Shown one piece after another: positions 1 to 55,446 of a DNA stretch of 62,147 bases. Both the position numbers and the translations under genes were made by a program. The notes under the pieces were generated by a model that was not told the DNA's origin, ran no database searches, and worked only from the letters and a program-made list of their open reading frames with translations. The DNA is taken from the NCBI GenBank assembly GCA_044892505.1, contig CM097883.1:205965854-206028000 (forward strand), read 5' to 3'. Within the stretch, counting starts at the first letter, position 1. Each line of letters starts with the position of its first letter. Origin of the DNA: Schmidtea nova (taxonomy: Eukaryota).

Positions 1-80
1 ACCTTTGATCTTTTTTTATTATTATTATCAATAATTCTCATAATGACTATAGATCAAAATTTTTTTTTATATAAACAATA

Positions 81-115
81 ACACAATATTTCGGCACAGC
101 CTTTATCAAGTGTGT
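81..115 (-). ncRNA. Minimal type-I hammerhead ribozyme motif (U3-A8 variant) in the PLE 3' tail
   Basis: Minus strand reads ACAC-TTGATAA-A-GGC-TGT-GCC-GAAA-TATT-GTGT: helix I ACAC/GUGU, core UUGAUAA...GAAA, 3-bp helix II, palindromic AUAU in place of helix III. Confidence 0.7.
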
Positions 116-212
116 ATTTCTATCGTTATATTGACTTAATCCTAAATAGTAGCCTTAATTATTTTTTTAATATTTTATAATGATTTTATTGGATGAAAAA
201 ATTTATTTTATT

Positions 213-1697
213 TTAATTTTTTTGTGCGAATTGAATGTTGATGGACGGTTTGTATTTTTTTATGAAAAAAGTCTCGGAAGCTAATCTTTGTAATGAATTT
301 TTGAATCCCTCTTGTAGGATCTGGCATTTTGTTTCTTCTATAGATGGAGTTGTTTTATGTACTTTTTCCCAGTGTTCGTAATAATTACTGGTTTTGATTT
401 TAGTATGTTCATTAAGTCGGGTGCGAAAAGTTCTATGTGTTTCTCCTATGTAAGTAGCGTCACATTTTTGACAAGAAAGTTTATATACTATATTTTTGGA
501 AAAGCAAAAGCATCGGGTTGTGGAACGACAAAGACATTTATGTTTGGAGATGTTGGAAATTGGTGGCTTTCGGAGTTGTGATTTTAACGGTGCGGAGGTT
601 ATGAACGTTGGACGGATGTGGATAGGCAAATCTGTTTGATTAAAAATGTTGGTGATTTTGTTGGCTGTAGTGTCATTTAGGAAAGGTAATCTTAGATATG
701 TTGTGTGTTTGTTATTGTTATTGTGTTTCTGGCGTTTTCTATTGTTGCGTTTATTGTGGTATGGTTCGTTAAGGAAGTGTTTCTTTACAAAGTCTTCAGG
801 GTATCCATTTTGGAGGAATCGTATTTTGAAGTTTTCTAATGTTTCTTGTATTTTGTTTGCGTCTGAACAGTTTCTTATGGCTCTTTTTCTTTCTCCTATT
901 AGTAATGCGATTTTGCGTTGAAGTGGAACGTGGCTTTTCCATGGGAGGATATGACCGCTATGTAAACCTTTAGAATATAGCTCGGTGTTTGCATTTAGTG
1001 TATCTTGGCCTTTTGTGAAACTTACCATGGTATCTAAAAACGGTATTCTACCTTCTGTGTTCGGTGTTTCAAAAGTAAATTGTATGTTGGTGTTAGTAGA
1101 ATTTGCGTGTGATAGGATTTGATTGAGAGGGATTGTGGAGACTATGAAGATGTCGTCGATGTATCGTTTCCAGAAAAGTATTTTGTCCCCAAAAAAAGAT
1201 ATGATCTTAGATTCTATAAAGTTCATGTAGAAGATGGCTAAGATGGGAGAAAGGTTATTACCCATGGCTAATCCATGAATTTGTTTGAATGGTTTTTCTT
1301 TAATTATGACAGTATCTGAATTTATTGCTAATTTTAGAAGTTCTATAAAGTCTTGTTTAGTTAAGTCTGCGAGGTCAGTATTGGCTTTATGAGTTTCAAA
1401 GAAAGAAGCTGCGATATCGAAAATGTTATTCTCTCCGTGAAGAGGAATAAATCCGTAAAGATTGGAAACGTCAAGAGATCCCCAGAAGTACTGTTGTCCT
1501 GAGTTTAACGGAAGAGACGTATTTGTAATTTCGGAGACGAATTCAGTTGTGTTTTTAAGATGAGAAGGAACCAAAGGCAAAAGTGTTTTTAGAATTTCTG
1601 AAAGAACTTTAGAAAGTGTTGTGGAAGGAGTGTCAACTGCAGATACAAGAGGTCTACCTTTTAAAGGACTTTTGTGATCTTTAGGTAACATAGTCAT
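213..1697 (-). CDS. PLE reverse transcriptase + C-terminal GIY-YIG endonuclease (5'-truncated; frame stays open upstream to ~2030)
   Basis: RT motifs SLDVSNLY, GLAMGNNLSPILA, RYIDDIF, FLD; Cys-rich linker then NIVYKLSCxxC-YIGET-R-R-NEH. The upstream in-frame ILPSDKTNR matches the PLE ADKG motif. Confidence 0.93.
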   Translation of the reverse strand: MTMLPKDHKSPLKGRPLVSAVDTPSTTLSKVLSEILKTLLPLVPSHLKNTTEFVSEITNTSLPLNSGQQYFWGSLDVSNLYGFIPLHGENNIFDIAASFFETHKANTDLADLTKQDFIELLKLAINSDTVIIKEKPFKQIHGLAMGNNLSPILAIFYMNFIESKIISFFGDKILFWKRYIDDIFIVSTIPLNQILSHANSTNTNIQFTFETPNTEGRIPFLDTMVSFTKGQDTLNANTELYSKGLHSGHILPWKSHVPLQRKIALLIGERKRAIRNCSDANKIQETLENFKIRFLQNGYPEDFVKKHFLNEPYHNKRNNRKRQKHNNNNKHTTYLRLPFLNDTTANKITNIFNQTDLPIHIRPTFITSAPLKSQLRKPPISNISKHKCLCRSTTRCFCFSKNIVYKLSCQKCDATYIGETHRTFRTRLNEHTKIKTSNYYEHWEKVHKTTPSIEETKCQILQEGFKNSLQRLASETFFIKKYKPSINIQFAQKN

Positions 1698-2302
1698 ATT
1701 ACTAGGTAAAGGCTCACTGCAGTTGCATTTTAAAAGTAAATCTTTGATTTGAAGGTTAATTTGTTTATTTGCAAGTGTTGAAAGTTTCTTATTGTATAAA
1801 ATCTGAGTCGATGCAGGTAAGATTATTTTGTTTATCGGTTCATAGTTCGAGAGATGTTCTTCAAATAGAGTATTGTATTGTTCTGTGTCAAGAGCAATTA
1901 GTCGATTTGTTTTATCTGATGGAAGAATTGTGAAGTCTTTGGAATTCTTAATTTTCTTTATGTTTGAAGTGAAAGAATTTTGTGTTGAGCAATGTTTTTC
2001 AAGAAAGATAATTTGTTCTCTGACTAAAGTTTAAGAATTAAGAATTAATTAAGAATTCCAAAGACTTCACAATTCTTCCATCAGATAAAACAAATCGACT
2101 AATTGCTCTTGACACAGAACAATACAATACTCTATTTGAAGAACATCTCTCGAACTATGAACCGATAAACAAAATAATCTTACCTGCATCGACTCAGATT
2201 TTATACAATAAGAAACTTTCAACACTTGCAAATAAACAAATTAACCTTCAAATCAAAGATTTACTTTTAAAATGCAACTGCAGTGAGCCTTTACCTAGTA
2301 AT

Positions 2303-3787
2303 ATGACTATGTTACCTAAAGATCACAAAAGTCCTTTAAAAGGTAGACCTCTTGTATCTGCAGTTGACACTCCTTCCACAACACTTTCTAAAGTTCTTTC
2401 AGAAATTCTAAAAACACTTTTGCCTTTGGTTCCTTCTCATCTTAAAAACACAACTGAATTCGTCTCCGAAATTACAAATACGTCTCTTCCGTTAAACTCA
2501 GGACAACAGTACTTCTGGGGATCTCTTGACGTTTCCAATCTTTACGGATCTATTCCTCTTCACGGAGAGAATAACATTTTCGATATCGCAGCTTCTTTCT
2601 TTGAAACTCATAAAGCCAATACTGACCTCGCAGACTTAACTAAACAAGACTTTATAGAACTTCTAAAATTAGCAATAAATTCAGATACTGTCATAATTAA
2701 AGAAAAACCATTCAAACAAATTCATGGATTAGCCATGGGTAATAACCTTTCTCCCATCTTAGCCATCTTCTACATGAACTTTATAGAATCTAAGATCATA
2801 TCTTTTTTTGGGGACAAAATACTTTTCTGGAAACGATACATCGACGACATCTTCATAGTCTCCACAATCCCTCTCAATCAAATCCTATCACACGCAAATT
2901 CTACTAACACCAACATACAATTTACTTTTGAAACACCGAACACAGAAGGTAGAATACCGTTTTTAGATACCATGGTAAGTTTCACAAAAGGCCAAGATAC
3001 ACTAAATGCAAACACCGAGCTATATTCTAAAGGTTTACATAGCGGTCATATCCTCCCATGGAAAAGCCACGTTCCACTTCAACGCAAAATCGCATTACTA
3101 ATAGGAGAAAGAAAAAGAGCCATAAGAAACTGTTCAGACGCAAACAAAATACAAGAAACATTAGAAAACTTCAAAATACGATTCCTCCAAAATGGATACC
3201 CTGAAGACTTTGTAAAGAAACACTTCCTTAACGAACCATACCACAATAAACGCAACAATAGAAAACGCCAGAAACACAATAACAATAACAAACACACAAC
3301 ATATCTAAGATTACCTTTCCTAAATGACACTACAGCCAACAAAATCACCAACATTTTTAATCAAACAGATTTGCCTATCCACATCCGTCCAACGTTCATA
3401 ACCTCCGCACCGTTAAAATCACAACTCCGAAAGCCACCAATTTCCAACATCTCCAAACATAAATGTCTTTGTCGTTCCACAACCCGATGCTTTTGCTTTT
3501 CCAAAAATATAGTATATAAACTTTCTTGTCAAAAATGTGACGCTACTTACATAGGAGAAACACATAGAACTTTTCGCACCCGACTTAATGAACATACTAA
3601 AATCAAAACCAGTAATTATTACGAACACTGGGAAAAAGTACATAAAACAACTCCATCTATAGAAGAAACAAAATGCCAGATCCTACAAGAGGGATTCAAA
3701 AATTCATTACAAAGATTAGCTTCCGAGACTTTTTTCATAAAAAAATACAAACCGTCCATCAACATTCAATTCGCACAAAAAAATTAA
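2303..3787 (+). CDS. PLE reverse transcriptase + C-terminal GIY-YIG endonuclease (second copy; frame open from ~2048)
   Basis: Identical to 213..1697 except YGSIP vs YGFIP. Confidence 0.93.
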   Translation: MTMLPKDHKSPLKGRPLVSAVDTPSTTLSKVLSEILKTLLPLVPSHLKNTTEFVSEITNTSLPLNSGQQYFWGSLDVSNLYGSIPLHGENNIFDIAASFFETHKANTDLADLTKQDFIELLKLAINSDTVIIKEKPFKQIHGLAMGNNLSPILAIFYMNFIESKIISFFGDKILFWKRYIDDIFIVSTIPLNQILSHANSTNTNIQFTFETPNTEGRIPFLDTMVSFTKGQDTLNANTELYSKGLHSGHILPWKSHVPLQRKIALLIGERKRAIRNCSDANKIQETLENFKIRFLQNGYPEDFVKKHFLNEPYHNKRNNRKRQKHNNNNKHTTYLRLPFLNDTTANKITNIFNQTDLPIHIRPTFITSAPLKSQLRKPPISNISKHKCLCRSTTRCFCFSKNIVYKLSCQKCDATYIGETHRTFRTRLNEHTKIKTSNYYEHWEKVHKTTPSIEETKCQILQEGFKNSLQRLASETFFIKKYKPSINIQFAQKN

Positions 3788-3884
3788 AATAAAATAAATT
3801 TTTTCATCCAATAAAATCATTATAAAATATTAAAAAAATAATTAAGGCTACTATTTAGGATTAAGTAAATATAACGATAGAAAT

Positions 3885-3919
3885 ACACACTTGATAAAGG
3901 CTGTGCCGAAATATTGTGT
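3885..3919 (+). ncRNA. Minimal hammerhead ribozyme motif (U3-A8 variant), right-arm PLE tail
   Basis: acacacttgataaaggctgtgccgaaatattgtgt, ~100 nt after the ORF stop. Confidence 0.7.
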
Positions 3920-3971
3920 TATTGTTTATATAAAAAAAAATTTTGATCTATAGTCATTATGAGAATTATTG

Positions 3972-4030
<59 letters not shown>

Positions 4031-4052: not shown

Positions 4053-4585
4053 ATGACTTTATAAAAATATTCAACACAAAAAAAACAAATTAAAAATATT
4101 GTCGTAGTTTTTATTGATTGCGCAATATTATTTACAATCAAAAATAAGGCCCTAAAGAGGACCATTATTTCATTCTCAATCTGTTTTCGTATGTCTTTTC
4201 GGTTTTCGGTTTTCTGAATCTGTTTTCTGAATCTGTTTTCGGTTTTCTGAATCTGTTTTCCTTTCTGTTTTATTTTCTGTTTATTTTCTGTTTATGTTTC
4301 TAAAATCTAAATATGAAAAAAAACAAAAACTGTTTTTTACAATCATAAATTGTGGCCCTAAAGAGGGCCGATTTTGCATTCTCATATCTTTTTTTCTGAT
4401 TTTCTTGATCCTTCTGAATATCTTCTTATTTTTTTTTTGATTTTCTGTTTTATTTTTTTTGATTTTCGGTTATTTTTTTTTGGTAATCTTTATTTCCGTT
4501 TATTTCTAGCCATCATTGCAAATAATTATGCTCCGGCTCTTCGTAAAAGAAATACGGATCGTCATCTTGTATCTGTTGTTGTAGC

Positions 4586-4616
<31 letters not shown>

Positions 4617-7600
4617 GATTCTGATGCTGAGGTTGCTCCGTATCTAAAATACTGTTACCCCCTCTATAATGGCCATATGCCAGGATTTTATTTTTCCCTA
4701 CCAAATTACGCTTGTCATCTCTACAGCTTAATGCCCTCTTATGATTTTTAACACTAAAAAGTTGATGATTTTTAGATGTTATCCTAAACTGGGGGACCGT
4801 ATAGATCTTATTATTTACATAGCAATCTAGATACGACTGATGAGTTAGTCCAGTATCCTTCATGCATATCCCCTTAGCCTTCATACTCTCCTCATCACCC
4901 ATTAAGCTGTAGCATTTCGGTCTAAGAAACACCCACTCTTTATACAGCATCCCTTTACTCTCGTCTTTGAACTTTCCAATGACAGAGTCAAGGTTTCTAT
5001 TGTATAAAGGATCCATAGGGTCATAATTGGAAGTGTCCAGCAAGCAATCATTAACCATAGCCGGTAAAAGAGTGTCAAGACTACTGTTTTTTACCTCAAG
5101 AAAAAAGGAGTCAGTATCCCCAGCAACGATGTTAATCTTACAGTTGAACTCGTCACGATATTTTTGTAACTCGACATACTGTAGCTGGTACATTCTTAGT
5201 TTGGATAAATCCAGTACAGTTTGACCGATGTAGCTGGGTCTATCCAAACATATTGACTCCTTTCGCAGCAAAACAGAAATCAGGTCATTATCTATTTTAT
5301 TAGTTTTACGAAACGTAGGTTTCGAGCAATAAGTGATTAATTTTTTGGCATTATTACATAGACGCAAATTAATGCGTTTTTTAAAATTTTCAACAGTCTT
5401 GCCGTAAAGACTGTTGTTTAATAATTTATAAAAATCGCGATCTAATTTATTTGTTGACGCTGATCTTAACGTCGTATTTGTGTTTATATAATTTAAAAAA
5501 ATTTTATTTTGGTTAAATTTTATAGCCCTGTGGACTTTTGTTATAATGATGCCTAATTTAACAAATAGTTGCAGAAGCCGCCAATGAAGAACATAGTTCT
5601 TCTTTGGATTATGCGTGAGCATCAGCTTCTCAACCTTGGATCCCGGTGCACACATCTTTTAAGCGGCAACTGGAAGATCATCCAGTTTGTCGTGAATTGA
5701 TGCCGGTATCTCCAAATCCACTTCTATGGTGTAGCCATAATGAAGTACATCTAGATCGACCGATGTGCACTCACAAACGATTTCATTTAATAAGTGGTCA
5801 TCAGTGACCCATTCGAAATTAGAGCAAGGTAAAGGTTGGCTTAAGGCCCATCCATACAAATTATTGATGTCAATGTAAAGCAATGCGGTATCCGGGCTTG
5901 TTTTTACATAATGTTTGTTAATGAAGGTTAGTCCGCCACGGATACCGCCCTCGAAAAAGTTGTACATCTCCATATCGGTGAGGAGCTCAATTGGAGATTC
6001 TAAGGTCATTAATGCGGAACTCCAAGATAAACTTGGAATCCCGAGGAAATTCAGAGGTTCAAGTCTATTATGATTAATAGACTTGAAACGAAATTGCTGG
6101 AAAAAATCAGCAAGTAAAAAAACGTCGAGTTTTAAATAAACCATCATGTAATCAAAAAGTGAATTACATGATGTTTCAACCCATATTCTTTGTGCCATTT
6201 CGTATTCTGCTTGTTTTACATCTTTCCAGATCGGTGGAAGAGATAAGGTTGAATGTAAAACTTCTAAGGAAGTTGCAGCATCATAGGGAAAAATGCCCTT
6301 GGCTGTAATTATAGTGCCTTGAAATTCTGATTCGGTGAGTGGTAAGGAAGTAAGAGTTTTGACAGCATTATTTCAAGACTCGCTGACGAATTGGTATGAG
6401 TCTATGAATTCTACAGTTAAAGAGTCAATCCTAGCAAAAAGACTAAGAAATTTCTCACTGGTTAAGGGAATACAACTTATATTCCATTTTCGGTATTTGG
6501 ATAAACCATATTTTAGAATATGGTGTAGATCATACCCCTTTAAATTATGAAAGATAACAGGAAGGGTATCTCTAATCTGTCTGGATTTATTACATTCTGA
6601 GCAAGTTGCTCCAAGAAAAAGACCGGTGAAACTTGTCATGATCCCTAACAGGTCTACATAAAAGCTTTTTACACAAATAACAAATTGTGCTGTTATTAAA
6701 TTCAATTTGTTGCTCATGACTTATTATCATTTTTTTATTTGAATTTTTAAAATAGTATGGTGTTACTATGTGGCGACTTATAAGTTCTATTTCATTAAGA
6801 AATTCTTCTACACAATTAAGGCCGGCAAAAGATTTATATGTTTTTTGACCAGAAAAGTTGTTAATTAATAACAAACCGGCAGAAATAGGCAAATGCTTTT
6901 GGAAATACCAGGTGTTCGGAGGTAAAATTGCCTCAAAGTCGGCATAAATAACAAAGGGAGGAGTCACTGTTTTGCGCCAATCAGTAAATTCGAGCATTTT
7001 ATTTTTTGGTAATGTGTACAAAGTTGTACCAGTTTGATTTTTATCACAAAGACCCCTATGCCTATTGAAAACTTCATCATTTCTAAACCCATTTAAACAT
7101 CTCGGACACCATTTACTACAAATCCTTACCGGGGTTATCGAGCTATTACGACAATTCAAAAATCGATTTAAATCAAAGATACCTATATAATGATAAGTTT
7201 TTCTGTTCTCAAGCAATAACAGATTTATTGGGGTACCACCTACAACTTTTGACTTGTAAATTAAGTCTATAAAAGGGTGTTTAAGAACAATATCCTCATT
7301 GTCATCAGTAATATCTAATAAGGCATTTTCATCATATGACATAACATTAATGCTATAACCAGGGTTTTGTCGCTCAAATTTACTGATATTTCCAAGTCTC
7401 ATTGGCATATCATTGGGGTCATAATTTAATTGTGAAAGATTGTAAGATGAAGGAATACAACGAGTTTCATTCGTTAAACTATCATATTTAATTATCGAAA
7501 GAAAGCTATATAAAAAACAAAAGTTGTCCTCATTCACGACATTAACTAAGCATTTCTTTTTCCGTAAAGATTTAGGAGTATCGATAGACTGACTTCCGCC

Positions 7601-8205
7601 TAATCTAGTTATTTCAGAGTATCTGGTCAAGACAAAGCTTATGTACTCTACTTTGGAGATAGTCCAGTTACTACCTTATTACCTTATTACTACCGCTATT
7701 ATTTTTTCATTTAAAAGAGCAATACCTTCTTCAATGAAAGTATCACTCCAGACCCTGGCAGAATTTGAGATAACGAACGATTGTAATTCATCGTCTTTCT
7801 CAAATTCCACCTTCAAACAGAATTGGATTTTAACGGTTTTTAATTTGTTGACATAAAAATTTAATTTTTTTAAAAGAATTGTCGGTACTGAGACCGTTTT
7901 CAAATTTAAATTTTCAACGTCCATTTTAATAATTATATGATTATTATTTAGGTCATTTATGATCTCGACGACACCATATCCTATTTGGTTAATATTATTT
8001 AAATTATTATTATTATTTAAATTTTCATCATCACTGATGACTATTAATTCATCATCAGTGAGATCTATTATTTGAATTTTAGTAGGAACTGAATCCGGTA
8101 TTTTAATATGTTTTCTTTTATTATTATTTAAATTATTTGTATTATTTGTATTATTGATATTATTTAAATTATTTGTAAGATTATTATTTGTATTATTTAG
8201 ATTAT

Positions 8206-8399
8206 CATAATTATCTTTTTTCACCTTTGATCTTTTTTTATTATTATTATCAATAATTCTCATAATGACTATAGATCAAATTTTTTTTATAAACAATAAC
8301 ACAATATTATACACACTTGATAAAGGCTGTGCCGAAATATTGTGTTATTGTTTATAAAAAAAATTTGATCTATAGTCATTATGAGAATTATTGATAATA
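8206..8399. mobile_element. 194-bp palindromic mini-PLE (inverted tail + hammerhead + tail) inserted in pPolB
   Basis: 8223..8308 matches the tail at 1..90 and 8311..8399 matches 3885..3975. Flanked by the 14-bp direct repeat attatttagattat (8192-8205, 8400-8413). Confidence 0.85.
8311..8345 (+). ncRNA. Minimal hammerhead ribozyme motif in the mini-PLE
   Basis: Identical to 3885..3919. Confidence 0.68.
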
Positions 8400-8844
8400 A
8401 TTATTTAGATTATTTGTATTATTTAGATTGTTTGTATTATTTGTATTATTTGTATTATTTAGATTATTATTTAGATTATTATTATTTATAGTATTAATTA
8501 TAGGATTAATTTGGTTGTTGTTAATAAAATTAGGAAAAATTTGCTTAAATAAAATTTTCTTGGAAGGCTGAAACTGCGAAAGATGTCTACAGTGCCTATT
8601 AAAGAAATCAAAATATGGGGAAATTTCGATAAGTTTACAGGTGTGGCATAGGAGGTGGGTAACATTATTATATGTCAACGAGTAGTATTTTTCCATAATG
8701 ACATGGCAATCATTATGGAACCTACTGTTGCAAAAATTTTTGTAGGTTGAACCTGAATTTAAATAAATATTTAAATAAATTTTCAATATACATATAACAT
8801 TATAAATACAAAAATTATATCAAAAATCAATATTTCATCATATA

Positions 8845-9162
8845 CAGTAAATTGTTGCATATATAATTCTATTTCATAAATGTTTATTATCAAAAAATGA
8901 ATAAAGTAAATTGTTTCATATATATAATTCTATTTCATAAATGTTTATTATCAAAAAAAATGAATAAAGTAAATTGTTTCATATATATAATTCTATTTCA
9001 TAAATGTTTATTATCAATAAAATGGATAAAGTAAATTGGTTCATATATATAATTCTATTTCATAAATGTTTTTTATCAATAAAATGAATAAAGTAAATTG
9101 TTTCATATATATAATTCTATTTCATAAATGTTTATTATCAATAAAATGAATAAAGTAAATTG

Positions 9163-9222
<60 letters not shown>

Positions 9223-9525
9223 CTATTTCATAAATGTTTATTATCAATAAAATGGATAAAGAAAATTGGTTCATATATATAATTCTATTTCATAAATGTT
9301 TTTTATCAATAAAATGAATAAAGTAAATTGTTTCATATATATAATTCTATTTCATAAATGTTTATTATCAATAAATGGATAAAGTAAATTGTTTCATATA
9401 TATATATATATATAATTCTATTTCATAAATGTTTTTTATCAATAAAATGAATAAAGTAAATTGGTTCATATATATAATTCTATTTCATAAATGTTTTTTA
9501 TCAATAAAATGAATAAAGTAAATTG

Positions 9526-9565
<40 letters not shown>

Positions 9566-9740
9566 CTATTTCATAAATGTTTATTATCAATAAAATGGAT
9601 AAAGTAAATTGTTTCATATATATAATTCTATTACATAAATGTTTTTTATCAAAAAAAAAAACAAAATGAATATTTCATAATATAATTCTATTACATAAAT
9701 GTTTTTTATCACAAAAAAGTAAAATGAATATTTCATAATA
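8845..9740. repeat. ~62-bp AT-rich minisatellite, ~12 copies plus 2 degenerate, with variable internal (TA)n
   Basis: Unit aaagtaaattgtttcatatatataattctatttcataaatgtttattatcaataaaatgaat. Confidence 0.93.
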
Positions 9741-9895
9741 TAAATACTTTTAATATTATACTTTTAAATCATTTTGAAATGGTTTGAAAAACAATTACAA
9801 AATGATTTAAAAATAATATATTAAAAGTATTATTTAAATTAAAAACTCATGTTAAAAAAAAATAAATTCAATAATAAATTTTAACAAATTCTTAC

Positions 9896-10423
9896 ATTTG
9901 TTCTTCCCATAAATTGGGGCATCCAGATTAGCGACAACATTCGGGACACCAACATTCGGGACGTCATTCGGGACCTCATCGTCCATATCCACATTTCTCA
10001 TAATATTCATATTATCTGAAAAATTTATAATTAAATAATATTAATAAAATAAATAAATCAAATTACAATTAAATCGTCCCATTGACGAAAATACCCCCAT
10101 CCTTGGTGATGCTTCGGCATTGTTAATGTTGTTGTTGTTGTTATTGTTGTTGTTGCTATTATTATCTAAAGTAAAGTAATAATAATAATAATAATAATAA
10201 ATATTACCTAAAAATCGGATTCCATTGTGTTCTCCAACTCGTATTCTTGGAGCAACATTGAAAGATGTCGACTGGTCATCCTGTCGCATCATAACTGTTG
10301 CGAGATTTTGCGCAATATTCATTTCTGAAAGGAAATAATAATAAAATTCAAAATAAAAATAATAAATTTACCATTTACACCTCCTGCGAAATTTCTTTTC
10401 TTTGATATTCTAATATTATTCAT
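9896..10423 (-). CDS. Spliced multi-exon ORF of the Polinton (exons 10423-10372, 10324-10208, 10165-10067, 10015-9896); possibly the 5' exons of pPolB
   Basis: Three GT-AG phase-1 introns of 47, 42 and 51 bp give a continuous frame MNNIRISKKRNFAGGVN-EMNIAQ...DAPIYGKNK, followed by another GTAAGA donor at 9895. Confidence 0.6.
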
Positions 10424-10503
10424 CTTTGATTGAGTGATAATTGATAATTGATTTGAAAATTGATTTGAAAATTTATAAGTAAAAAGTGACGAAATAATGC
10501 AAG

Positions 10504-10711
10504 TATATACTATATAAAGATGAATTTTATTAACCGACCAATCAGAATCGAGATAGGATAGGCATATACATGCACACATACTGCACACTCAATATACTTT
10601 GTTTATGTGTTTGACGTCACGATACTTGCTTTGTATCGTGACAAAGACATGATATGACATGTTTTATCATGTGCTTATCACGCACTGATCACGCACTGGT
10701 CATGTCTTTGT
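10504..10711 (-). promoter_or_regulatory. Putative Pol II promoter: TATA-like (10504-10517), CCAAT box CGATTCTGATTGGT (10537-10550), CRE TGACGTCA (10612-10619) with nested inverted repeats
   Basis: Motifs lie upstream of the ATG at 10423; the same CCAAT block recurs at 15303 and 15358. Confidence 0.5.
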
Positions 10712-10803
10712 GATTAAAATAATAATATTCAATATTAATAATAAAAATAATAATATTTTATAAAAATAATAATAAAAAAAAATAATAAAATCACATAATA
10801 CAT

Positions 10804-11205
10804 TTATTGTTTTAAATAATCTACAACAGCAGACAAGCACCCTTTATAGGCACACATACAATGGTCTTTATAGGGACATGAAATGTTTTCAGGAACATAT
10901 TCAACTTCTTTATAATTATATTTAATTAATCTTAATTTCGGGAAATACTTCTTCAAAACATGTAACTTTTCATTATCGGTAACATAGAAAATAGCTCCTT
11001 TATCTGTAATATCATCCATTATACATTTTGGGCAAAAATAATCTTGTCCTTCAAACGATTCGATACGATCAGGCCAGAAAGATAAATCACTGTATATATA
11101 ATACTGGGGTGTGAAAATATTATTGACATTCATAATACATAATTCCTTAATTGTTGTACCACCCATTTCATTATAACCATAAAAATCGATAAAATAACAA
11201 GACAT
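10804..11205 (-). CDS. Polinton accessory protein, DEDD/DnaQ-like exonuclease-fold N terminus with Cys/His-rich C terminus (likely catalytically degenerate)
   Basis: FIDFYGY...IKELCI resembles the DxxG..IKEL pattern; CPxxxH..CAxxxC tail; a homolog occurs at 28887..29087. Confidence 0.55.
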   Translation of the reverse strand: MSCYFIDFYGYNEMGGTTIKELCIMNVNNIFTPQYYIYSDLSFWPDRIESFEGQDYFCPKCIMDDITDKGAIFYVTDNEKLHVLKKYFPKLRLIKYNYKEVEYVPENISCPYKDHCMCAYKGCLSAVVDYLKQ

Positions 11206-11237
11206 TTTTTCAAATAAAATTTATTAAAATAAATTGT

Positions 11238-11616
11238 TTATAACATTGATTTCAACCATGCAAGGCAATGTTCACCACAAGTGATTGTTAAGGGATGCTG
11301 ATACCGAATTCTATTATACACAATAGGTTTACCAATAGTTTGAAGTTTTCGAACAAGTAAATTCGGATAATAATATCCAAAGGGATCAAATACATGTATT
11401 CGATCTGGTTTCACATAAACTGCAATCCAATGTTCACCGCCCAACGTAGATGTCTGAGTATTTACAATGATGGCTTGATTCATTTTCAAATAAGGTATTT
11501 TATCTAGCGGAAATACTCCAATAAATTGATTTCCCAATAGTTTTTTACCTTGATGTAATACCTGAATAGAACTAATTAAAAATAAATAATTAATCAATTA
11601 AAAAATCTTACTCCAT
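11238..11616 (-). CDS. Adenain-like cysteine protease (5-nt first exon 11616-11612, 40-bp intron 11611-11572)
   Basis: IVNT...GEHW (His), FDPFG (Asp), YQH...TCGEHC (Gln, Cys). Splicing yields MDSIQVLHQG. Confidence 0.9.
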
Positions 11617-11719
11617 GATAATAATAAGTTATAATAACTATGGTCATTTATACTATTTGAGCAGAGCTTAAACTAATAATGTTTAAGCTTTGCTTAAACC
11701 AACAATGTTTGAGCAGAGC

Positions 11720-12230
11720 TCAAACCAATATTGTTCGATTGGCCGTAATTTGTACTTCATTTTCAAAAACTCCATATATAATTACATGAACAGGTTCATC
11801 AATGGGTTTTGAAAACTTTATATCGAGTCGTAAATTTCCGTTTTGAGGGATTTGGCCTTGATTCAAATCAAAATCGGGAGCGAGCACAAATGTAAAGAAT
11901 GGATATTTAGTTTTAAATTCATCCAGACTTATACCACAATTCAAGTTTTTATCCAAATATCCTAGATTTCTGACAACACTTTGCATATATGTGGCACTAA
12001 AATTATCATTTTCAAAATCTTGAGTATAAGTTTCTCGAAAATCAGTATTTTTCGATAACGTTAATGAAGTCACATTGAAATGTTTGAATGTAGATGCAGA
12101 TTCAGCATATGATCCATTATATTGATTTTCAGTTTGAAAAGCCACAAGAATGAAATTAGGCATTCTTCTATCTCCAAATATTTGCTCCTTGTAAAATGAC
12201 GATGCCCCTTTCCGATTTACTGTAAAATGG
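11720..12230 (-). pseudogene. Major capsid protein (double jelly-roll), C-terminal remnant
   Basis: MPNFILVAF..NGSY...FKHF...GISLDEF...LAPD...GNLRLDIKF...YGVFENEVQIT..R matches the Polinton MCP C-terminal pattern; the N-terminal ~60% is missing. Confidence 0.8.
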
Positions 12231-12386
12231 AAATGGATTATACACAAATGTAAAGTCTAAGAGAGAGACTTCCCAAATCCCGTCCAAATACATTGTATTT
12301 TGGAGATTGACCATGAAATTACTTGCTGTATTATCTGGATGTATATCTGGACAACTGTTGCTAGGTAGAATCATATAAAAATTCAT
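12225..12386 (-). pseudogene. Minor capsid (penton-like) protein, N-terminal remnant
   Basis: MNFYMILPSNS..HPDNTASNF...L...LDGIWEVSL is the typical Polinton minor capsid start. Its ATG overlaps the integrase stop (ATGA). Confidence 0.75.
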
Positions 12387-13429
12387 TTTACTAGGTTTTT
12401 TGATGATATCCATGATGGTTCTTTATATCCATGCCACTTGACATAGTATTGTTTATCCTTACCCACCATTTTAGATTTCAGGATTTTTTGAATTCTAAAT
12501 ATTGTCGGTGGAGGAATAACTTGTAATTCTTGTTCGTAGAATTTCCCGCTGATTATATTGTTATCAGAGTCACAAATAGTATACATGACAGGATTCTGCA
12601 CTGTGTTGACTTTCGATATTTGATATACCTCATCACTCCAATTATTTTCAAAATTTTTAATAAATGGCGATGCACTAATTTTGCTTATTCGAACATGATC
12701 ACCAATTTTATATTTTGGTTTCTTTATTTTCACTTCACTCAAAGTATTTTCAGTATCAACTACTTCGGCCGGTTTCCTACCATTTATACCCCGATGAGCA
12801 CTATGATTATAACTATGAATCAATTGAGGTAAAACATTAATCCAGGTTTTATTGCCTTTAAAAACAAAGTATTTTTTCAATCGATCACGCAAAGTTCGAT
12901 TAAATCTCTCGACATGAGCGGCTTTGAATTGCGAGAATACTGAATAATGATTTATTCCCTTGATAACTTCCTTGACTTTACTGTTGTAAAATTCCTTTCC
13001 TAAAAAATATTAAATATGTATAAATTAAAATTAAAATTTACCCAAATCGGTTTGTAAATTAGTTGGCCGATCCTTTTTCATCATTGTTTTGATAGCAATT
13101 GCCATGTCATTAGCTGATTTTGATTTTACTCCAATTGCTCGAGCAAATCTACTGTAAACATCAATACATGTTAAAATATACTTATACCCCTTGTTAATTT
13201 TGGAATACGGAATCATTTCCATCAAGTCCATTTGCCACAAATCATTGATTCTATATGTTTTATATGCTCGAGTTGGAAACCGTTTCAACATCGGTTTGTT
13301 TAGACTGTATGCAAGTTGCCCCGATAACCAACTTTGTGTCTGTTGTTTCGACTTCTGTGCTTTTTTCCTTAGCTTTTTGACTCCACCGAAACCGGCGTCG
13401 TCTTTTGGGTTCGTCAAGATCTTCTGCAT
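12383..13429 (-). CDS. Retroviral-like DDE integrase with C-terminal chromodomain, 334 aa after removing a 42-bp intron (13041-13000); intact
   Basis: WQMDL (D), QTDLG^KEF (D; the intron splits the Gly codon), VERFNRT (E); chromodomain IQKILK..YYVKWHGY..PSW. Exons of 388+617 nt are in frame. Confidence 0.92.
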
Positions 13430-13481
13430 TACAACAAGAAGATTTAAAGTTTAAATTTAAATTAGGTAATGATTGACCCAT
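13260..13481 (-). CDS. Small ORF overlapping the integrase 5' end in another frame; MG start, CC, basic patch
   Basis: MGQSLPNL...SSCC...KRRRRFRW; its ATG is 3 nt after the stop of the upstream gene. Confidence 0.35.
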   Translation of the reverse strand: MGQSLPNLNLNFKSSCCNAEDLDEPKRRRRFRWSQKAKEKSTEVETTDTKLVIGATCIQSKQTDVETVSNSSI

Positions 13482-13484
13482 TGT

Positions 13485-14070
13485 TTATGACCTTTGTCCC
13501 AATAAACCAGCACCTCCCAATAATGATAAAGCTAGTGGTAATAATGCGGTAATAAATCCTCCTTGTTGTTTATATATTATTTTGCGCATAAGTTTTCGAT
13601 TTTTTGTTTTTACTAGCGACAACAATGGTTTCTTATGCTTGTTCAAAACACGTCGATTAGATGGACTGAGATGCATTTTACCTCTCACTACTTTAATTAA
13701 AATAGCGAGTAAATCATCGATAACGTAATTAAATAAATCATCGATAACGTAATTAATCGATAACGTAACTAGGAAACGATTGAAGAATAGCCATTCTTCT
13801 AGCGGATGGGGCTTTAAGCAATGCATTAAAAAACGGAAAACTCCGATGATGTATTTGTTTAGCATTTGATTTCAAATTAATTGGAATTTGATTTTGTTTG
13901 GGAAAATTATCCATAATTAGTTTTTTCGATGGCGTATAACTTGTTTTTGAAACTGATTTTGAAACGGATTTCTTTGTCGATTTCTTTCTTCGACCTGCTT
14001 TCTTACCTATTTTCATTGATTTTCGAGCTTTTATCAATCGTTCAAACTTTACTCGAGATTTCATTAACAT
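13485..14070 (-). pseudogene. Basic Polinton core/cement-like protein with protease-site-like QQGG^F C terminus; frameshifted by a 40-bp tandem duplication (13729-13768)
   Basis: Removing the duplicated atcgataacgtaa block joins ...FPSYVID to DLLAILIK...KQQGGFITALLPLALSLLGG. Lys/Arg-rich. Confidence 0.65.
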
Positions 14071-14090
14071 TATTATTACTGTAAATCAAT

Positions 14091-14693
14091 TTAACTTTGT
14101 TTATAAACCATATCAGTTCTAACTCTTAAATCATCACTGCATTGTTGAGTAAAGTCCAGGAAAATATATCCATGAGGAGATTTTGTAGCATCTTGAAAGG
14201 CCTCCATTAAAAAGTTACGGTTAGAAGGATAAGCTTGTCTTGCCAGAAAATCAATAACTGTTGCATCTCTAGGATTTTTAAACACAACAAGATATTGAAC
14301 ATATAAATTACGAGTTCGATGACTACCGCCCTGATGAAATAAATTCTGAGTTATAAAAATAACAGTAACACCTTTATGTCTACTGATTTTCGTGAATAAG
14401 TTATTGAAATCCTTTTCTTTATTTGCTTCTTGATACAAGTCGTCAATTATAATCACATCACCTTGTTTTAATCTAGATGACCAGTTTTTATCGAAACCTT
14501 TTATGATTGTCATTTTTATTTTACAAAACTGATATTGAGTCATTCCACTTTCGTCGTCAGCACCCCTATGCCAATAAATATTATTAAATTTTGACTTGAA
14601 TAATTTCGATTGCAATAATTTACAAACAAATAAAGTTTTTTCACTCCCGCTCGGACTAACAATTTGAAACACTGCATCATTTCTTAATTCCAT
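14091..14693 (-). CDS. Polinton A32/FtsK-HerA packaging ATPase with damaged Walker A
   Basis: SPSGSEKT (from GPSGSGKT), IIIDDL, FTKISRH..VIFITQNLF, KNPRD, HGYIFLD. Confidence 0.9.
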   Translation of the reverse strand: MELRNDAVFQIVSPSGSEKTLFVCKLLQSKLFKSKFNNIYWHRGADDESGMTQYQFCKIKMTIIKGFDKNWSSRLKQGDVIIIDDLYQEANKEKDFNNLFTKISRHKGVTVIFITQNLFHQGGSHRTRNLYVQYLVVFKNPRDATVIDFLARQAYPSNRNFLMEAFQDATKSPHGYIFLDFTQQCSDDLRVRTDMVYKQS

Positions 14694-14787
14694 ATTTAAA
14701 AATTATATTTTCTTAATATTATTGTTTATATTTGTTTTAAATACCGGTTCTCAAAGTAATTGTTTCATTTAAAAATATTTTCAGTAA

Positions 14788-15275
14788 TGATTAGAAACAT
14801 TATTTACAAGGGTAAGACAGATGAATCACACATGAAATTTCCAAATGGAAAACCACAGCAAATTGTAGATCGAAGTGGGAAATACCCAAAAATATACTTT
14901 AAAACAGGAAGATATAGAATAATGGGATGCAGGAATTTATTAGTGAAGAACAAGTTGAGTTTTACGATTTAAAAATTCAATCGATAACTGTAACTGCGGA
15001 TTTAGGATTTATTTGTAATTTGAATGAATTATCTAAATTGATACCGTGTGTTAACGAGCCAGAATTATTTCCAGCTTTGAGATATACCAAATATAATCCC
15101 ATGTGTGTAAATATATTTGTAAATATATTTGTGTGTAAATATATTTGGGAAATTAGTCATATTAGGATTAAAAAACAAAGATTATTCAACTATAGTTGAT
15201 GATATTAATAACGATATAAAATCAATTATAGAAGATAAAGCCTTTGTTGATTTCATACTAACATGTGACTCATGA
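14788..15275 (+). pseudogene. TATA-binding-protein (TBP)-like protein, two half-repeats, frameshifted (~14930 and ~15120-15147)
   Basis: Repeat 1 ends IYFKTGRYRIMGC. Repeat 2 is IQSITVTADLGFICNLNEL...NEPELFPALRY..P.CVNIF..GKLVILGLK, comparable to TBP IQNMV..D..I.LE.L...YEPELFPGL.Y....LIF.SGK.V.TGAK. Confidence 0.75.
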
Positions 15276-15302
15276 CTGCAATATCGATGCAGTAGAAATG
15301 CA

Positions 15303-15418
15303 CGATTCTGATTGGTTCTGTGTGTATTTCGAGAATAAAGACATGTTGTGCATGCTTGATTCTGATTGGTTCATTATGTATCGTTTTCTAAATCATGTGT
15401 GTTTCTTTCGTATATAAA
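15303..15418 (+). promoter_or_regulatory. CCAAT-CCAAT-TATA promoter
   Basis: GATTCTGATTGGT at 15304 and 15358, TATATAAA at 15411, ATG at 15454. Confidence 0.55.
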
Positions 15419-15453
15419 CTATGAACAAACTGACATAGTTTATATCTACAATT

Positions 15454-16049
15454 ATGTCGCAAAATACAAAGAATTTAAAAAATGGTAATAATAAAATTAA
15501 TATATTTTCAAATTTAATATATTTTATTTTTTTTTAGAAAAACGCATGTCCGTCATCTACACCAAACTGGCTGAGATGTTCCCCAACCTGATGCAGACGC
15601 TGACCTATACAGCACCAGAGCTGTTCCCGTACAAAATTCACGTTTTGACGGGAATAGATGTTAATAAAATATTAAAGTAGCACCTCGAAAATCTCAACAA
15701 TGATTTGCCTTTTATGGCCGAACATATATTATGCGCCTATCAATGCGGGCACTGTGTGGATAGGATCCATAAATTACAAGTGTGGGTTCTCCGAAATACC
15801 CTGAATCAATTCGAAACCAAGGAGATGAAGGAAATCATCGAGGAGGAGATGAAACAAGAAAGATGGTTGAACTCAACCCCCGAACCGATTGATGATTCAA
15901 TTGAGATTGAAGCACCAGCGATAGATGGACCATTGGAATCGCCACAATCACCTGATTGTGATGAATGTCACCGAAAGGTTGACGATTGTGATGATGATGA
16001 TGATAATGATGGTTGCCAATCTCTTGGTGGTGAACCATCAGATATGTAA
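15454..16049 (+). pseudogene. Two-exon Polinton ORF (53-bp intron 15485-15537), Cys-rich middle and acidic tail; one in-frame TAG at 15678
   Basis: Spliced frame MSQNTKNLKN-EKRMSVIY...ILK*HLEN...HILCAYQCGHC...DCDECH..DDDD. Confidence 0.6.
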
Positions 16050-16429: not shown

Positions 16430-17850
16430 ACTAAAGACGTAGAGACAACGCTTAAAGCGCTGCATGATTTAGATGATGGGAAGAAGATGTCTGATGTCGT
16501 ATACTAGTTTGGAGTCCCTCTGAGCACCCTTTCTACATGGAAAAAGAATAGATCCAGCTTGGAAGTTTCTTCCATTTCAATGAACCCAGATCGTAAAAGA
16601 AACCGAACTCAAAGTTAGAAGACGTAGAGGAGGCCTTGCTGCAATGGATTACTAGAGTTCGTGGCCAAAATGTCCCTATCTCTGGTCCTCTTATGAAAAA
16701 AAGGCGGAGCAGCTCGCTGGTATCATGGGGTTTCCGAATTTTCAGTGTAGTAATGGATAGCTAGATTGTTTCAAAGTGAGACATGAAATAACATTTAGAA
16801 ATGTTTGTAGAGAAGGCAATTCTGTGAAAGAGGAGGACATCTTATCTTGGCAAAATTCTCTTCTCCCGGAATTGCTTAACAGATACAAAGCCGAGGATAT
16901 ATTTAATGCTGACGAGGATAGTTTGTTTTTTGAACTCTTACCCGACAAAACAATGAGTTTCAAGGGCGAACCATGCTCAGAAGGTAAGAAATGAAAGCAA
17001 CGTGTCACAATCATGGTTGCTGCAACATGACTGGCTCTGAGAAACTTCCTCTTCTTGTAATCGGATGCTCAGCACAACCACGATGCTTTAAGAATATCAA
17101 GTCGCTGCCCGTTGAATATGTTTCCAATAAAAAAGCATGGATGACTGCCACATTATTCGAGGAATGGCTCAAGAAATATGACAGAAAATTTGCAAAACAA
17201 AAGAGAAACGTGGCCTTTATTGTAAATAATTGTGCAGCTCATCCTGATGTACAGGGACTTATGGTAAGCATCATTTTATAAATTCTTACATTTTATACAT
17301 TCTTACGTATAGGCTATAAAACTAATTTTCCTTCCTCCCAATACGACGAGAAAAACGCAGCGAATGGAGCAAGGCGTTATTCAAAACTTGAAAATGCACT
17401 ACCGCTCTCGAGCACTCTCTCTCTTCTTCTCACAGATCTTGAAGCTGGCAAAGAATTTCGAGTGAACCTTTTGGAAGCTTTGCACACAACGAGATATGCT
17501 TAGAATTCTGTAAGGCAGATTACCATTGAAAATTGCTTTAGGCACTGTGAATTCAAAATTACAGATGACATGCCCTCAATCACTGAAGAGAAAATTGAAG
17601 AACCGCTCAGGAAGAGCAGTACCAGGTAGACTGAATAAATAATAAAAATTCTATATTCTTAATGAGTACAGGAACATATGGGACCGACTTCAACAACTGG
17701 GGCTCGTCAAAAGCAATGACACATTGGCCAGTTACATCACTGTCGATAATGATGTAGCCACCTCTGGCATATTAACGGAAGAAGTAGCAGCAGAGGTCGT
17801 ACACAAGAAGAAAGGAGCTAATGTCATCAATGAGAGTGATTGTGAAGATA
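16430..17850 (+). mobile_element. pogo/Tigger (CENP-B-type, TIGD4/6-like) transposase, decayed, with introns
   Basis: GVPLSTLSTWKKN, LEDVEEALLQW, NVPISGPL, IFNADE, CNMTGSEKLPLLVIG, KKAWMT, VNNCAAH, FLPPNTT; GTAAG...TAG intron near 17263-17312. Confidence 0.88.
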
Positions 17851-25553: not shown

Positions 25554-26464
25554 GTTTGTGGCATCAAATAACACATTTAATGAAAACTAAAAAAACCAAT
25601 AAATAAAAAGAAAATAAATTTAAGTCTATGCAATTCAGCAACAAAATTCATTACTCATACCTTTAAACCTACTCTTCGCAAAACCTATGAAATTGATTAC
25701 GACCTTATTTCAGTATTATTAAATAAAGATTCTTTATGTTTAGATGGATCCAGTTATATTTATAAAACCGAATTGGATTTATCTAAACTTGGTATGTACT
25801 AGCTGTAGTATGAAAATTTACAACAATATTGTAACGATTTCAATTGTGAAATTAACATCAGAACTCAGAGGTGTCAAAATTATGATCCACAAAGCCGTAC
25901 CAGAAGGAAAAAATATGAAATAATAATTCTTATTATAAGTTTAAAACAATTATTACAATTACATTTTCAATTTAGGCCAAAAGCTTACTGTATGTCAATT
26001 TTTGTATGTAATTTTTGCTTGATATAATGTACCGCTTCTCATTTTTCAAATCTTCAAAGTTTGGTATTAGACTTTGGCTAGATTTAATTTTTTATATAGA
26101 ACCTAAATGTTCTTCAGTCAATCTGGTTCGGTGCGCTGTTCTAGTCATTTTCATTTGTGAAAAAAGCTGTTCACATATATATGTGCTACCAAACATGGAT
26201 AATATGCGTATAACTGTGAGGTGTTTTCCGCTGAGAACTAAATATTTCAATGATTTATTAAAATAATTTCAAATGATAAATAATTTAAATTTAATAAGTT
26301 TTAAAATAATTGTTATAACTAATGTGTATTTATGTTTTTTATAATTTTTATAATTTGTAATTTTTATTTTTAAAGTTTGTAATTTTAAGATATAAAATAA
26401 ATAAGTAAATTTTAATAAATTATAATTTTATAAATAACTTTATACATTTTAAAATTTATAAATT

Positions 26465-27580: not shown

Positions 27581-28099
27581 AAAAACGATATGCAGATAAG
27601 TATCGGTAAAATTCTGGAATACCAATTTCCATATTTTTCTGTTTCAATAAGGTGTCGCATCGTAGTTCTATAAACTAAACTTAAGAATTTTACACTGTTA
27701 GCTACTTTTGTTTACATTTTTAACATAATGATTGATAAAAAAATTAAATAATGAAACTAAAATGGTGTTAGCTATTGCTAAACACAACATTACGATAAAT
27801 TAAAAAAATTGTTCGATACGCTGCTTGTTCGAAACTTTGCCATTGACCCTCAATCAAAAAATATTTGATATTTCTATTATAGCTGGTGACAGTGATTTGT
27901 GTTTCCTATAGGTAGTTTTACCTGCTATGATCAGGTATCAGCTTTTAGACACTTCAAATTATGACTGAAATTATCCCTTGTATTTTGAAATGCCATGATT
28001 TTGTCACTAACAAGTTCAAAGACGAGAATAAAGGACCTTAATACAAGAAATTAAGGCTTTAAGATATAATAATAATAATTTTAATAATCAAATAAATTT

Positions 28100-29353
28100 T
28101 ATTTTTTCTCTATTTTAGGCGACACTTTCATTGGCAGCTGATATATCGTGTCCATTGACCATTGGTGTGTCATTTTCATTGTTAACATTCATTTCAAAAA
28201 TAAAATAAAATTATCAAAATATAATAATATAAAATATACCATTTATTCCGTTTACATTTGCCGTTATAAGTCTTCAAAACTTCCATTTACATTAAATCCT
28301 AAAATTGAATAACAATAATAAAAAATAATAAAAAAATCTTACAATTCATTCTCGATCCGCTAATCTTTCCATAAGCGACATCATTAATATTATTGTTCAA
28401 GATAAAAGTTTATCGATTATTGATAATAATTTAGAAACTTTAGGTATTCGTAAAAAGTAAAAGAAATTGGTTAAACATATCTCTATATATTGGCTATAGC
28501 ATCATATTTAATCAACGAATGTAAATTGCTTAAGACTAGAAAAATTACCCTTACGCATAACATTAGTGTGTGTTTGTGTGTTTTCACAGACAATATATTC
28601 ACACACGCATAAATCTACACTAAATTAAAACACAAATTATCATGCTTTTGACTTTCAAAAACAAATAATTATTATATATTATCAACTTTTTAAATAAAAC
28701 ACAGACCAAACAACCTCTATAAGCACAGTTTGTATAATCACGATATGAACATGAAATATTAGCAAAGAAATCTTCAACCTCTTTCACATTTTAGTTGATC
28801 AGTTTTATATTTGAGAAATATCTCTTTAAAACAATAACATTATCTTAATCAGTGACATATATAATATCTTCTATTTCTTTCAAAATTCATATTGGACAAA
28901 ATCGATATTCTCCTTCATATTTTTCTAATCGATCATTTTCCCCAATTCCAGCCCAAATTGGCTTATCGTTATATATCCAATACTTTAGTAGAAAAATATT
29001 ATTTACATTCATAATACATAATTCTTTAATAACTATCCCACCTACATTCTTACTAGAGCCATAAATATCAATAAAATAACAAATCACATTTCAAGAACCA
29101 TTTATAAAACTATATTGTTCATACTTTTAACATAGAATTCAGTCATGCAAGGCAATGTTAAAAACAAGTAATCTTCAATGGATGTTGATACTAAATTTAA
29201 TTATATAAAATTGGTTTGTAAGACACCCAAATAAGGATCTTTCTGTAACGAATACACTCCAAAAAATTCATTTCCCAATAACTATTTTCCAATTTGATTA
29301 ATCTGAATAAAACTAATTTAATAATTTTTTGATAAATAAAAAACTTACTTCAT
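28100..29353 (-). mobile_element. Second, older Polinton fragment (protease - exonuclease-like - spliced small gene), same order as 11616..9896
   Basis: ICYFIDIYG..GGIVIKELCIMNVNNIF homolog; protease remnant MN^FIQINQIGK*LLGNEFFGV...HCLA with the same intron position. Confidence 0.78.
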
Positions 29354-54769: not shown

Positions 54770-55015
54770 ATGTCTGGTAACGCTATTGGCATAAATTTGG
54801 GTACTACCTATTCATGCGTTGGAGGGTTTCAACATGGAGAAGTGAAAAATATTTCCAACGAACAAGGAAATAGTAAAACTCCCAGTTATGCAGCATTTAC
54901 TGATACTGAGCGATTGATTGGCGATGCTGCAAAAAACCAAGTTGCAATGAACCAAAACGATACAGATTTCGACGCCAAAAGATTGACCGGCAGCAGATGT
55001 AATGCACCGTCAGTG
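54770..55015 (+). pseudogene. hsp70: HSP70 5' fragment (~80 codons, degenerate)
   Basis: [18 protein letters not shown]...[29 protein letters not shown]...FDAKRL.G; homology stops after APSV. Confidence 0.88.
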
Positions 55016-55446
55016 GAGACTATCTGGATCTTGAAAGAGTTTAAAGTCACAGGCAGATGATTGCTTACTGGAAAGCAGCGAAGCCCAACTCCTTATCAAA
55101 TGAGAATTTTGCGTCTGACTTTGTTACTGCAAAAAATATTTATTGGTATTTCATTGGTGAATTGCAGAAAGTGAAGTAAGGAAACGATGAAATTGTTGAT
55201 TGCAACAAAATTCACGATAAAAGGTCAAAGTTTGTCAAGGATTTCAGAATCTGTATCAAATGCCACAGTAGAGGTGGTATTCATCAACTTAAAGAAACTT
55301 ATTAAAATATCTTATTAAAATATCTATCAGGTGCTGCAACAAGCCCATCTTGATAGGGAATATGTGGGAAAGCTTTATCAATCGTGAGTAGACTTGTCAA
55401 TGATGTGTTTAAAAAGAAGAGATTTTAAATGCTAAACGACTATTCT

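Follow-up and report, generated by a model that had tools for sequence, protein, structure and literature searches.

Predicted short spliceosomal introns in the protease genes of two decayed Polintons from Schmidtea nova, and in the integrase gene of one

The window, by which we mean the whole 62,147-nucleotide (nt) stretch of Schmidtea nova DNA analyzed here (contig CM097883.1, assembly GCA_044892505.1) and to which all positions refer unless a relative is named, is AT-rich, transposon-filled eukaryotic DNA. At about 4.5–16.1 kb it holds a Polinton with a polymerase, an accessory gene (the 10423 gene), a gene for a 133-amino acid (aa) protein, a protease, remnants of the major capsid protein (MCP) and penton genes, an integrase, a PZ-like gene, an ATPase, a TBP-like gene and a second accessory gene (the 15454 gene). 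Membership of the Polintons is indicated by a DNA_pol_B_2 polymerase (Pfam), broken in the window copy and a single 1081-aa open reading frame (ORF) in the related locus L013, by an rve DDE integrase (Pfam rve and Chromo, with matches to retroviral integrase structures), and by a packaging ATPase, an adenain protease, a double-jelly-roll MCP and a penton, the last two as remnants only. A second, diverged Polinton remnant lies at 25.6–29.4 kb and is 68% identical to the first over 547 nt. Polinton core genes are usually described as intronless, a point on which passages of two studies agree (PMC8097293; Widen et al., bioRxiv 10.1101/2022.07.12.499685); here, both the protease and the integrase are interrupted. 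An earlier reading of the window (hereafter, the original prediction) had proposed six GT-AG introns in the first copy and a seventh in the second, and the ends and lengths of all seven segments hold.

The protease gene, on the minus strand, lies directly behind the capsid gene. The coding part of its exon 1 is confined to the ATG and two further nucleotides (11612–11616), and is followed by a predicted phase 2 intron of 40 nt with GT-AG ends (11572–11611) and by exon 2 (11238–11571), which is 334 nt long, stop-free, matched by Pfam Peptidase_C5 (5.6e-6) and by adenovirus protease structures (E ~1e-3), and which keeps the invariant His, Asp, Gln and Cys residues in alignment. The original prediction had described a micro-exon of 5 nt, ATGGA; five coding bases do precede the donor, but they are only the coding part of an exon that may extend further 5′. 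An alternative acceptor at 11562 was rejected as out of frame, and so was an MCP–protease fusion through splicing, as the MCP stop lies before the protease ATG. In the second remnant, a 36-nt segment of the minus strand (29313–29348) occupies the same site, as judged from its ends and from the alignment.

The intron was then followed in related DNA. The locus set numbers 82, the best 80 of 156 loci from a metagenome scan with an integrase profile and two from IMG/VR; 22 of them have a protease match, and loci L083–L086 stand outside this count. The IMG/VR scans gave distant relatives only (0, 2 and 1 loci), and a scan of prokaryote genomes gave three distant loci. An intron at the identical codon was found in five of the 22 protease-bearing loci, L008, L010, L013, L019 and L020 (the last two nearly identical to each other); these are all the close ones, at 50–61% identity, and the intron is absent from the 17 loci at 24–46% identity. 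All five read ATG-NN-GTAAGT, followed by an AT-rich interior and an AG at the same codon. When the six copies were aligned, the ATG stood 5 nt before the donor in all six, and the ATG, GTAAG and acceptor were fixed whereas the interiors varied, in line with the claim that GT and AG ends are kept across the family. The common site in both window copies and the five relatives also upholds the proposal that the protease intron predates both insertions. Intron lengths in the six copies (36, 39, 39, 40, 40 and 47 nt) span all three frame classes, so that only splicing keeps the frame, and in every class it restores the canonical M-x-S/T start of the intronless relatives. In 21 close loci, which total 90,611 nt, the motif ATGNNGTAAG was found at five places, all of them protease starts; 3.5 occurrences would be expected over the whole of that sequence. 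The segments have the GT..AG ends, GTAAG-like donor and pyrimidine-rich 3′ end of U2-type introns; in the protease, site and ends are also kept while the interior varies, and in both core genes the joined exons line up with homologues with no gap. One of the carriers, L013, is a near-complete element with a single-ORF polymerase, an integrase, an ATPase, two penton-like genes and an MCP. On this comparison, the predicted protease intron has been handed down through a deep clade, one member of which looks intact.

Protein databases hold the trace of the same intron. Among the best 120 of 363 protease matches, 61 have a canonical start, 27 open in an AT-rich read-through that runs to the acceptor, 30 are truncated or begin further downstream, and two are ambiguous. 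This is an annotation blind spot, with 57 of 120 records lacking a canonical start, and it bears out for the protease the warning that ORF-only searches would misread these elements; the window copy, however, is truly broken in most of its other genes. A donor fingerprint was present in another frame, 14–18 codons upstream, in 11 of the 13 proteins whose N-terminal read-through is long enough (11 of the best 120 matches, together with P0410 and P0490). Long N-termini in the wider protease set were also considered as read-through but are genuine extensions, with the exception of P0410 and its donor fingerprint. In a protease tree built by a quick search from 127 rows with N-termini excluded, and with start types labelled from the predicted N-termini, all 32 intron-type rows fall in one 66-row clade (Shimodaira–Hasegawa-like approximate likelihood ratio test, SH-aLRT, 98), along with 28 uninformative and six canonical rows; outside it are 59 canonical, two uninformative and no intron-type rows. 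The tree is most simply read as a single early gain followed by a few losses. A possible second intron near the protease C-terminus was seen at the same site in L019 (5651–5698) and L020 (5621–5669).

The integrase gene (minus strand) consists of an exon 1 (13042–13429, 388 nt) with the two catalytic Asp residues (Pfam rve, 2.6e-8), a predicted phase 1 intron of 42 nt (13000–13041) with GT-AG ends and stops in all three frames, and an exon 2 (12383–12999, 617 nt) with the catalytic Glu and a chromodomain, recognized from Pfam matches and from the spacing in relatives. The two exons are in compatible phase and join into 334 codons with no internal stop, as the original prediction had it. The intron falls directly after the second catalytic Asp and divides D,D from E. 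The exact 3-residue spacing given by the joined exons is seen in 106 of the best 120 of 436 integrase relatives, none of which has an insert; the other 14, mostly fragments, did not match the motif pattern. In 200,000 trials that each placed a random host-like insert of 33–60 nt at the integrase site, 1259 inserts could be read as GT..AG and 22 as a strong intron.

A search with exon 1 returned 26 matches, of which 17 are contiguous, four end earlier and five break at the intron site. At the intron codon, P0465, P0466 (with its cluster member P0489) and P0488, which clusters with P0463, run into a short AT-rich read-through and stop there. The contigs behind two C-terminal integrase halves, P0042 and P0046, have the lengths and sources of those behind P0465 and P0466, respectively, which suggests that each pair of halves derives from the same contig. 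P0464 and P0480, which end at or near the intron site, are ambiguous, and the chimeric gene model P0001, in which the integrase portion starts near exon 2, is a weak hint only. P0463 itself skips everything between the intron site and the last integrase residues, which could reflect a deletion, splicing to a far acceptor or an artefact. In a tree of exon 1 (65 rows, after 26 short rows were dropped), seven of the eight split rows fall in a weakly supported 15-row group alongside eight contiguous rows. Breaks at the same codon in other clusters, together with many contiguous loci, indicate a shared but patchy intron, and the integrase intron is probably real. The ends of the exon and of the intron resemble each other, as would be expected of a gain at an AG/G proto-splice site. 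Split integrases of this kind would be scored as dead.

Four further introns are predicted in the two accessory genes, for neither of which homologues were found in the searches made. The 10423 gene, on the minus strand, has a low-complexity first coding exon with an open frame (10372–10423), then intron 1 (10325–10371, 47 nt), intron 2 (10166–10207, 42 nt), intron 3 (10016–10066, 51 nt; probable) and exon 4 (9853–10015), which is open in the predicted phase to its stop and has a possible further donor near 9895. All three introns are phase 1 and have GT-AG ends, and the ORF ends inside intron 3. The donor and acceptor of intron 1 align with positions 28342–28299 of the second copy, a 44-nt intron-like GT-AG segment on its minus strand (28299–28342); conservation of position and ends is thus seen for one of the four accessory introns, the other three having no comparative support. 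Intron 2 is the least certain, since its length is a multiple of three and, with no in-frame stop, it could be read through. The 15454 gene, on the plus strand, has a predicted first coding exon (15454–15484), a probable phase 1 intron of 53 nt with GT-AG ends and a step in GC content (15485–15537), and an exon 2 (15538–16049) with its own ATG three codons in. The expectation that splicing would give in-frame products holds for the integrase, the protease and the 10423 exons, all stop-free, but not for the 15454 gene, whose product is not intact because of an in-frame stop at 15678–15680.

The four accessory introns are probably real. It is possible, although we think it doubtful, that only the core-gene introns are, and that some of the accessory calls (10423 introns 2 and 3 and the 15454 intron) are low-complexity sequence or untranslated region; this would be compatible with our reading of the core genes. 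The read-through of 10423 intron 2, the internal ATG of 15454 exon 2 and the lack of homologues would fit, and intron-like motifs arise by chance in the AT-rich DNA of the window (eight in 29 kb), so that accessory calls need more than a motif. However, GC content changes sharply at the introns (6–13% in the five introns measured, against 23–42% in the flanking exons), the three 10423 introns have the same phase between stop-free exons, one of them is matched in the second copy, and comparable accessory introns occur in relatives. In L007, a 40-nt intron bridges a frame change in the TBP-like gene, which is contiguous at that point in L013 and in the window, and two further introns are present; in L010, a 46-nt intron bridges a frame break in a phosphatase gene.

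The description of the core genes as intron-rich is not borne out: the protease intron alone is clade-wide, the integrase intron is patchy, and no intron was seen in the ATPase, PZ-like, penton and MCP genes of relatives or in the L013 polymerase. In a gene-by-gene check of stops and frames, in which 24 close loci were aligned to L013, no stop or frame break was found in the ATPase, PZ-like, penton or MCP genes wherever these were covered; the few second matches paired one penton paralogue with the other or fell in a single distant penton. The L013 polymerase, the one whole polymerase, is a single 1081-aa ORF with no intron, no intron-like gap was found among the five pieces of the window polymerase, and the intron that splits the TBP-like gene of L007 is missing from its counterpart in the window. 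Splicing of the basic ORF to the PZ-like gene was considered and rejected, as was a micro-exon in the PZ-like gene of L042, since the PZ-like gene has its own ATG in the ten loci inspected.

We read the window as holding two decayed copies of an AT-rich Polinton clade that would be spliced by the host, with a protease intron present early and kept and with further introns scattered among its members, and we put the probability of this reading at about 0.87. The first copy has its polymerase in five pieces, most of its penton–MCP block deleted, its PZ-like and TBP-like genes frameshifted and the Walker A motif of its ATPase degenerate. A search of sequencing runs for the stretch listed five, from two studies, with no RNA run among them, a result with no bearing on expression. 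Several observations weigh against our reading. The introns are predicted from DNA and protein sequence. In the protease, the L008 acceptor reads AAG, six canonical-start proteases sit within the intron clade (as losses or as contigs derived from mRNA), the tree is only 118 columns wide with two short rows omitted, and 11 of the start-type labels were adjusted by hand. In the integrase, relatives support the intron at the protein level only, and the split integrases do not form one clade: on the exon 1 tree their label needs five changes, and a single group appears in 0% of bootstrap trees. Copies lacking the segments had been named as what would speak against the introns, and here the outcome is divided, the protease intron being present in five relatives and the integrase intron in none of 81 DNA loci (72 contiguous, five out of register and four cut).

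A different account would take the AT-rich segment before the protease as an unspliced spacer or 5′ untranslated region, with translation of the protease beginning further downstream, at a non-AUG codon, or through re-initiation behind the capsid ORF. The window copy and L010 do have an in-frame Met in exon 2 upstream of the catalytic His, from which a shorter unspliced product could arise, the segment closely follows the MCP stop in relatives, and the kind of evidence at hand, described above, leaves room for such an account. However, an invariant ATG, GTAAG and AG around an interior that is not invariant, and a canonical start produced by splicing in every frame class, would be unexpected of a spacer, and in L008, L013, L019 and L020 no ATG stands upstream of the catalytic His unless the gene is spliced; we regard this account as improbable. 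Less probable still are copy-specific insertions (repair filler or introner-like) that entered a dead element after integration and look like introns by chance: the decay of the window copy, the integrase intron missing from all DNA loci and the finding that most introners in dinoflagellate Polinton-like elements are younger than integration (passages of PMC11957031) would fit, but the protease intron is common to elements 50–61% alike, one of them intact, which largely refutes the idea for that gene, integrase breaks at the intron codon recur in three other clusters, a strong GT-AG reading is rare by chance (the 22 trials above), and the interiors of the protease introns do not align with each other, no two of them having interior sequence in common, as introners would. 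None of the repeat families listed for the window covers the introns. Group I or group II self-splicing introns were rejected, as the segments have 36–53 nt and are 87–94% AT, against hundreds of structured bases; group I introns of Polinton-like viruses measure 309–376 bp (passages of PMC12220804).

If the introns are spliced, the clade would depend on the host nucleus for transcription of its genes and on the host spliceosome for their splicing, which implies nuclear, host-spliced expression for the clade and not cytoplasmic transcription of a helper-virus kind. The clade would have had the protease intron from early on, with the start codon, donor and acceptor kept while the interior and length of the intron drift. 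Less securely, individual members would carry additional short introns, in the integrase of the window sub-lineage, in the TBP-like gene of L007, in the phosphatase of L010 and in the accessory genes of the window. Such introns may have been gained at AG/G-type proto-splice sites during residence in host chromosomes, inherited because Polinton replication goes directly from DNA to DNA, with no reverse-transcribed stage, and occasionally lost. Why the protease intron would be retained is a more tentative matter: protease output would then depend on splicing, and the enzyme might stay scarce or late. More speculative again is the idea that a still-active, widespread clade gates virion maturation by the splicing state of the host (tissue, germ line, stress) through the second-codon intron of the protease, and serves as a natural experiment in which introns are gained again and again at identical proto-splice sites. 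Whatever the reason for its retention, the protease intron would be an exception to the intronless rule for Polinton core genes, in elements that look intact, and a small, fast-evolving clade of DNA viruses with one fixed and several recent introns would make a tractable system for the question of intron gain and retention.

The Polinton protease described here is, by its structure match, a homologue of the adenovirus protease. The L3 protease gene of adenovirus also lies directly behind the major capsid gene, and its product is made from a spliced mRNA. Adenovirus, however, splices a shared leader to an uninterrupted protease ORF, whereas in the Polinton clade the intron would interrupt the second codon. 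Vertebrate Mavericks resemble these elements in having a protein-primed polymerase, an rve integrase, a packaging ATPase, an adenain-like protease and major and minor capsid proteins, and in that most copies are decayed (passages of PMC8097293). According to the same passages, the genes of intact vertebrate elements have no introns, in agreement with Kapitonov and Jurka (2006) (Barreat and Katzourakis, PMC8097293), whereas in the present clade a relative that is otherwise intact would need splicing to express its protease; this clade also has a TBP-like gene. Nematode Mavericks likewise have intron-bearing genes beside the core module, but passages of their description place the introns in host-derived cargo and leave the core genes intronless (Widen et al., bioRxiv 10.1101/2022.07.12.499685), unlike the protease and integrase introns predicted here. 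Spliceosomal introns also occur within Polinton-like proviruses of dinoflagellates, where they are introners, mostly gained after integration; those are repeated and transposon-derived (passages of PMC11957031), whereas the interiors of the present ones are AT-rich and unrelated to each other, and one intron position has been inherited throughout a deep clade. Adintoviruses have a comparable animal polinton-like gene set, with a TBP-like gene named in a figure legend, but passages of the main text make no mention of splicing (Starrett et al., PMC8502044). In the literature searched, we found no report of Polintons that inherit a spliceosomal intron in their protease or integrase; Repbase, the founding papers of 2006–2007 and supplements lay outside its scope and could hold such a model.

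The remaining genes of the first copy are as follows. The protein-primed DNA polymerase B is in five pieces on the minus strand (4513–8275), three of which match Pfam DNA_pol_B_2 and which are 37–55% identical to the intact L013 polymerase; it is broken by in-frame stops near 7679, 6373 and 5659 and by a frameshift near 6590–6720. Between it and the 10423 gene lies an array of ~62-nt AT-rich units with TA runs (8842–9750). The polymerase is parallel to the core block in the window copy and opposite to it in L013; in the second remnant, too, it is convergent with the protease block, as shown by polymerase fragments at 25614–25859 and 27916–28034 (plus strand, 72% DNA matches to the first copy). 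The window copy may therefore be rearranged. No terminal repeats of the window Polinton were found, both flanks being overwritten by other elements. Behind the protease lies a conserved intronless gene for 133 aa (10804–11205, minus), 35–43% identical to its counterparts in L008, L010 and L013 and 52% to that of the second copy, with no Pfam family, matches to unnamed eukaryotic clusters and a weak Maelstrom-type lead (0.85). A C-terminal MCP remnant (11720–12256, minus; Pfam DJR-like, 0.0015) matches only L013 residues ~243–403, and what we take, from its position, to be an N-terminal penton remnant with no Pfam match (12200–12386, minus) is 47% identical to residues 13–63 of the L013 penton; most of the penton–MCP block has been removed by internal deletion.

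Upstream of the integrase, also on the minus strand, are a basic ORF and a gene that we presume to be PZ-like (13485–14085), frameshifted at a 24-nt tandem duplication (13710–13756), and the intronless packaging ATPase with its degenerate Walker A (14091–14693; Pfam Pox_A32, 7.2e-5; 72% to L013). The frameshifted TBP-like gene (14787–15206, plus; Pfam TBP, 1.2e-5) belongs to a regular component of the clade, seen in L007 (243–729), L012 (338–784), L013 (2420–2869; Pfam TBP, 5e-18) and L042 (5–316). A small ORF with an MG start (13260–13481, minus) is overprinted on the integrase, at its 5′ end, and recurs in L013 (4536–4736) and L042 (~1912–2200); it carries an SSCC/SNCC motif and could possibly encode a lipid-anchored protein. 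An ATAAACA motif, possibly a late promoter, lies upstream of several genes. Host-like cargo occurs in relatives, as a ubiquitin-conjugating enzyme in L013 (222–719, minus), the intron-split dual-specificity phosphatase in L010 (663–1263) and an ORF of L007 (1665–2171) that ends in a RING-like Cys pattern read by eye. Positions 1–380 of L010 resemble what we take to be a bacterial mraY fragment, and that assembly is probably chimeric.

The neighbours of the Polintons in the window are an inverted pair of Penelope-type reverse transcriptase ORFs, gypsy-type and pogo-type elements (all three names being our reading of Pfam matches) and an Hsp70 fragment. The pogo-type DDE_1 transposase contains a comparator intron of 49 nt with GT-AG ends (17264–17312, plus), DDE_1 positions 14–91 being matched before it and 102–147 after it, in different frames; this intron is some local indication that introns of such a size are spliced in the host. 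The Penelope-type ORFs form a perfect inverted pair of 1941 nt at 13–3987, with the arms 93 nt apart, and end pieces of the pair recur as a hairpin at 8240–8404. Assembly gaps (N) lie near 37961 and 55440, and the N-terminal Hsp70 fragment at 54764–55060 (plus; Pfam, 4e-24) is apparently a pseudogene.

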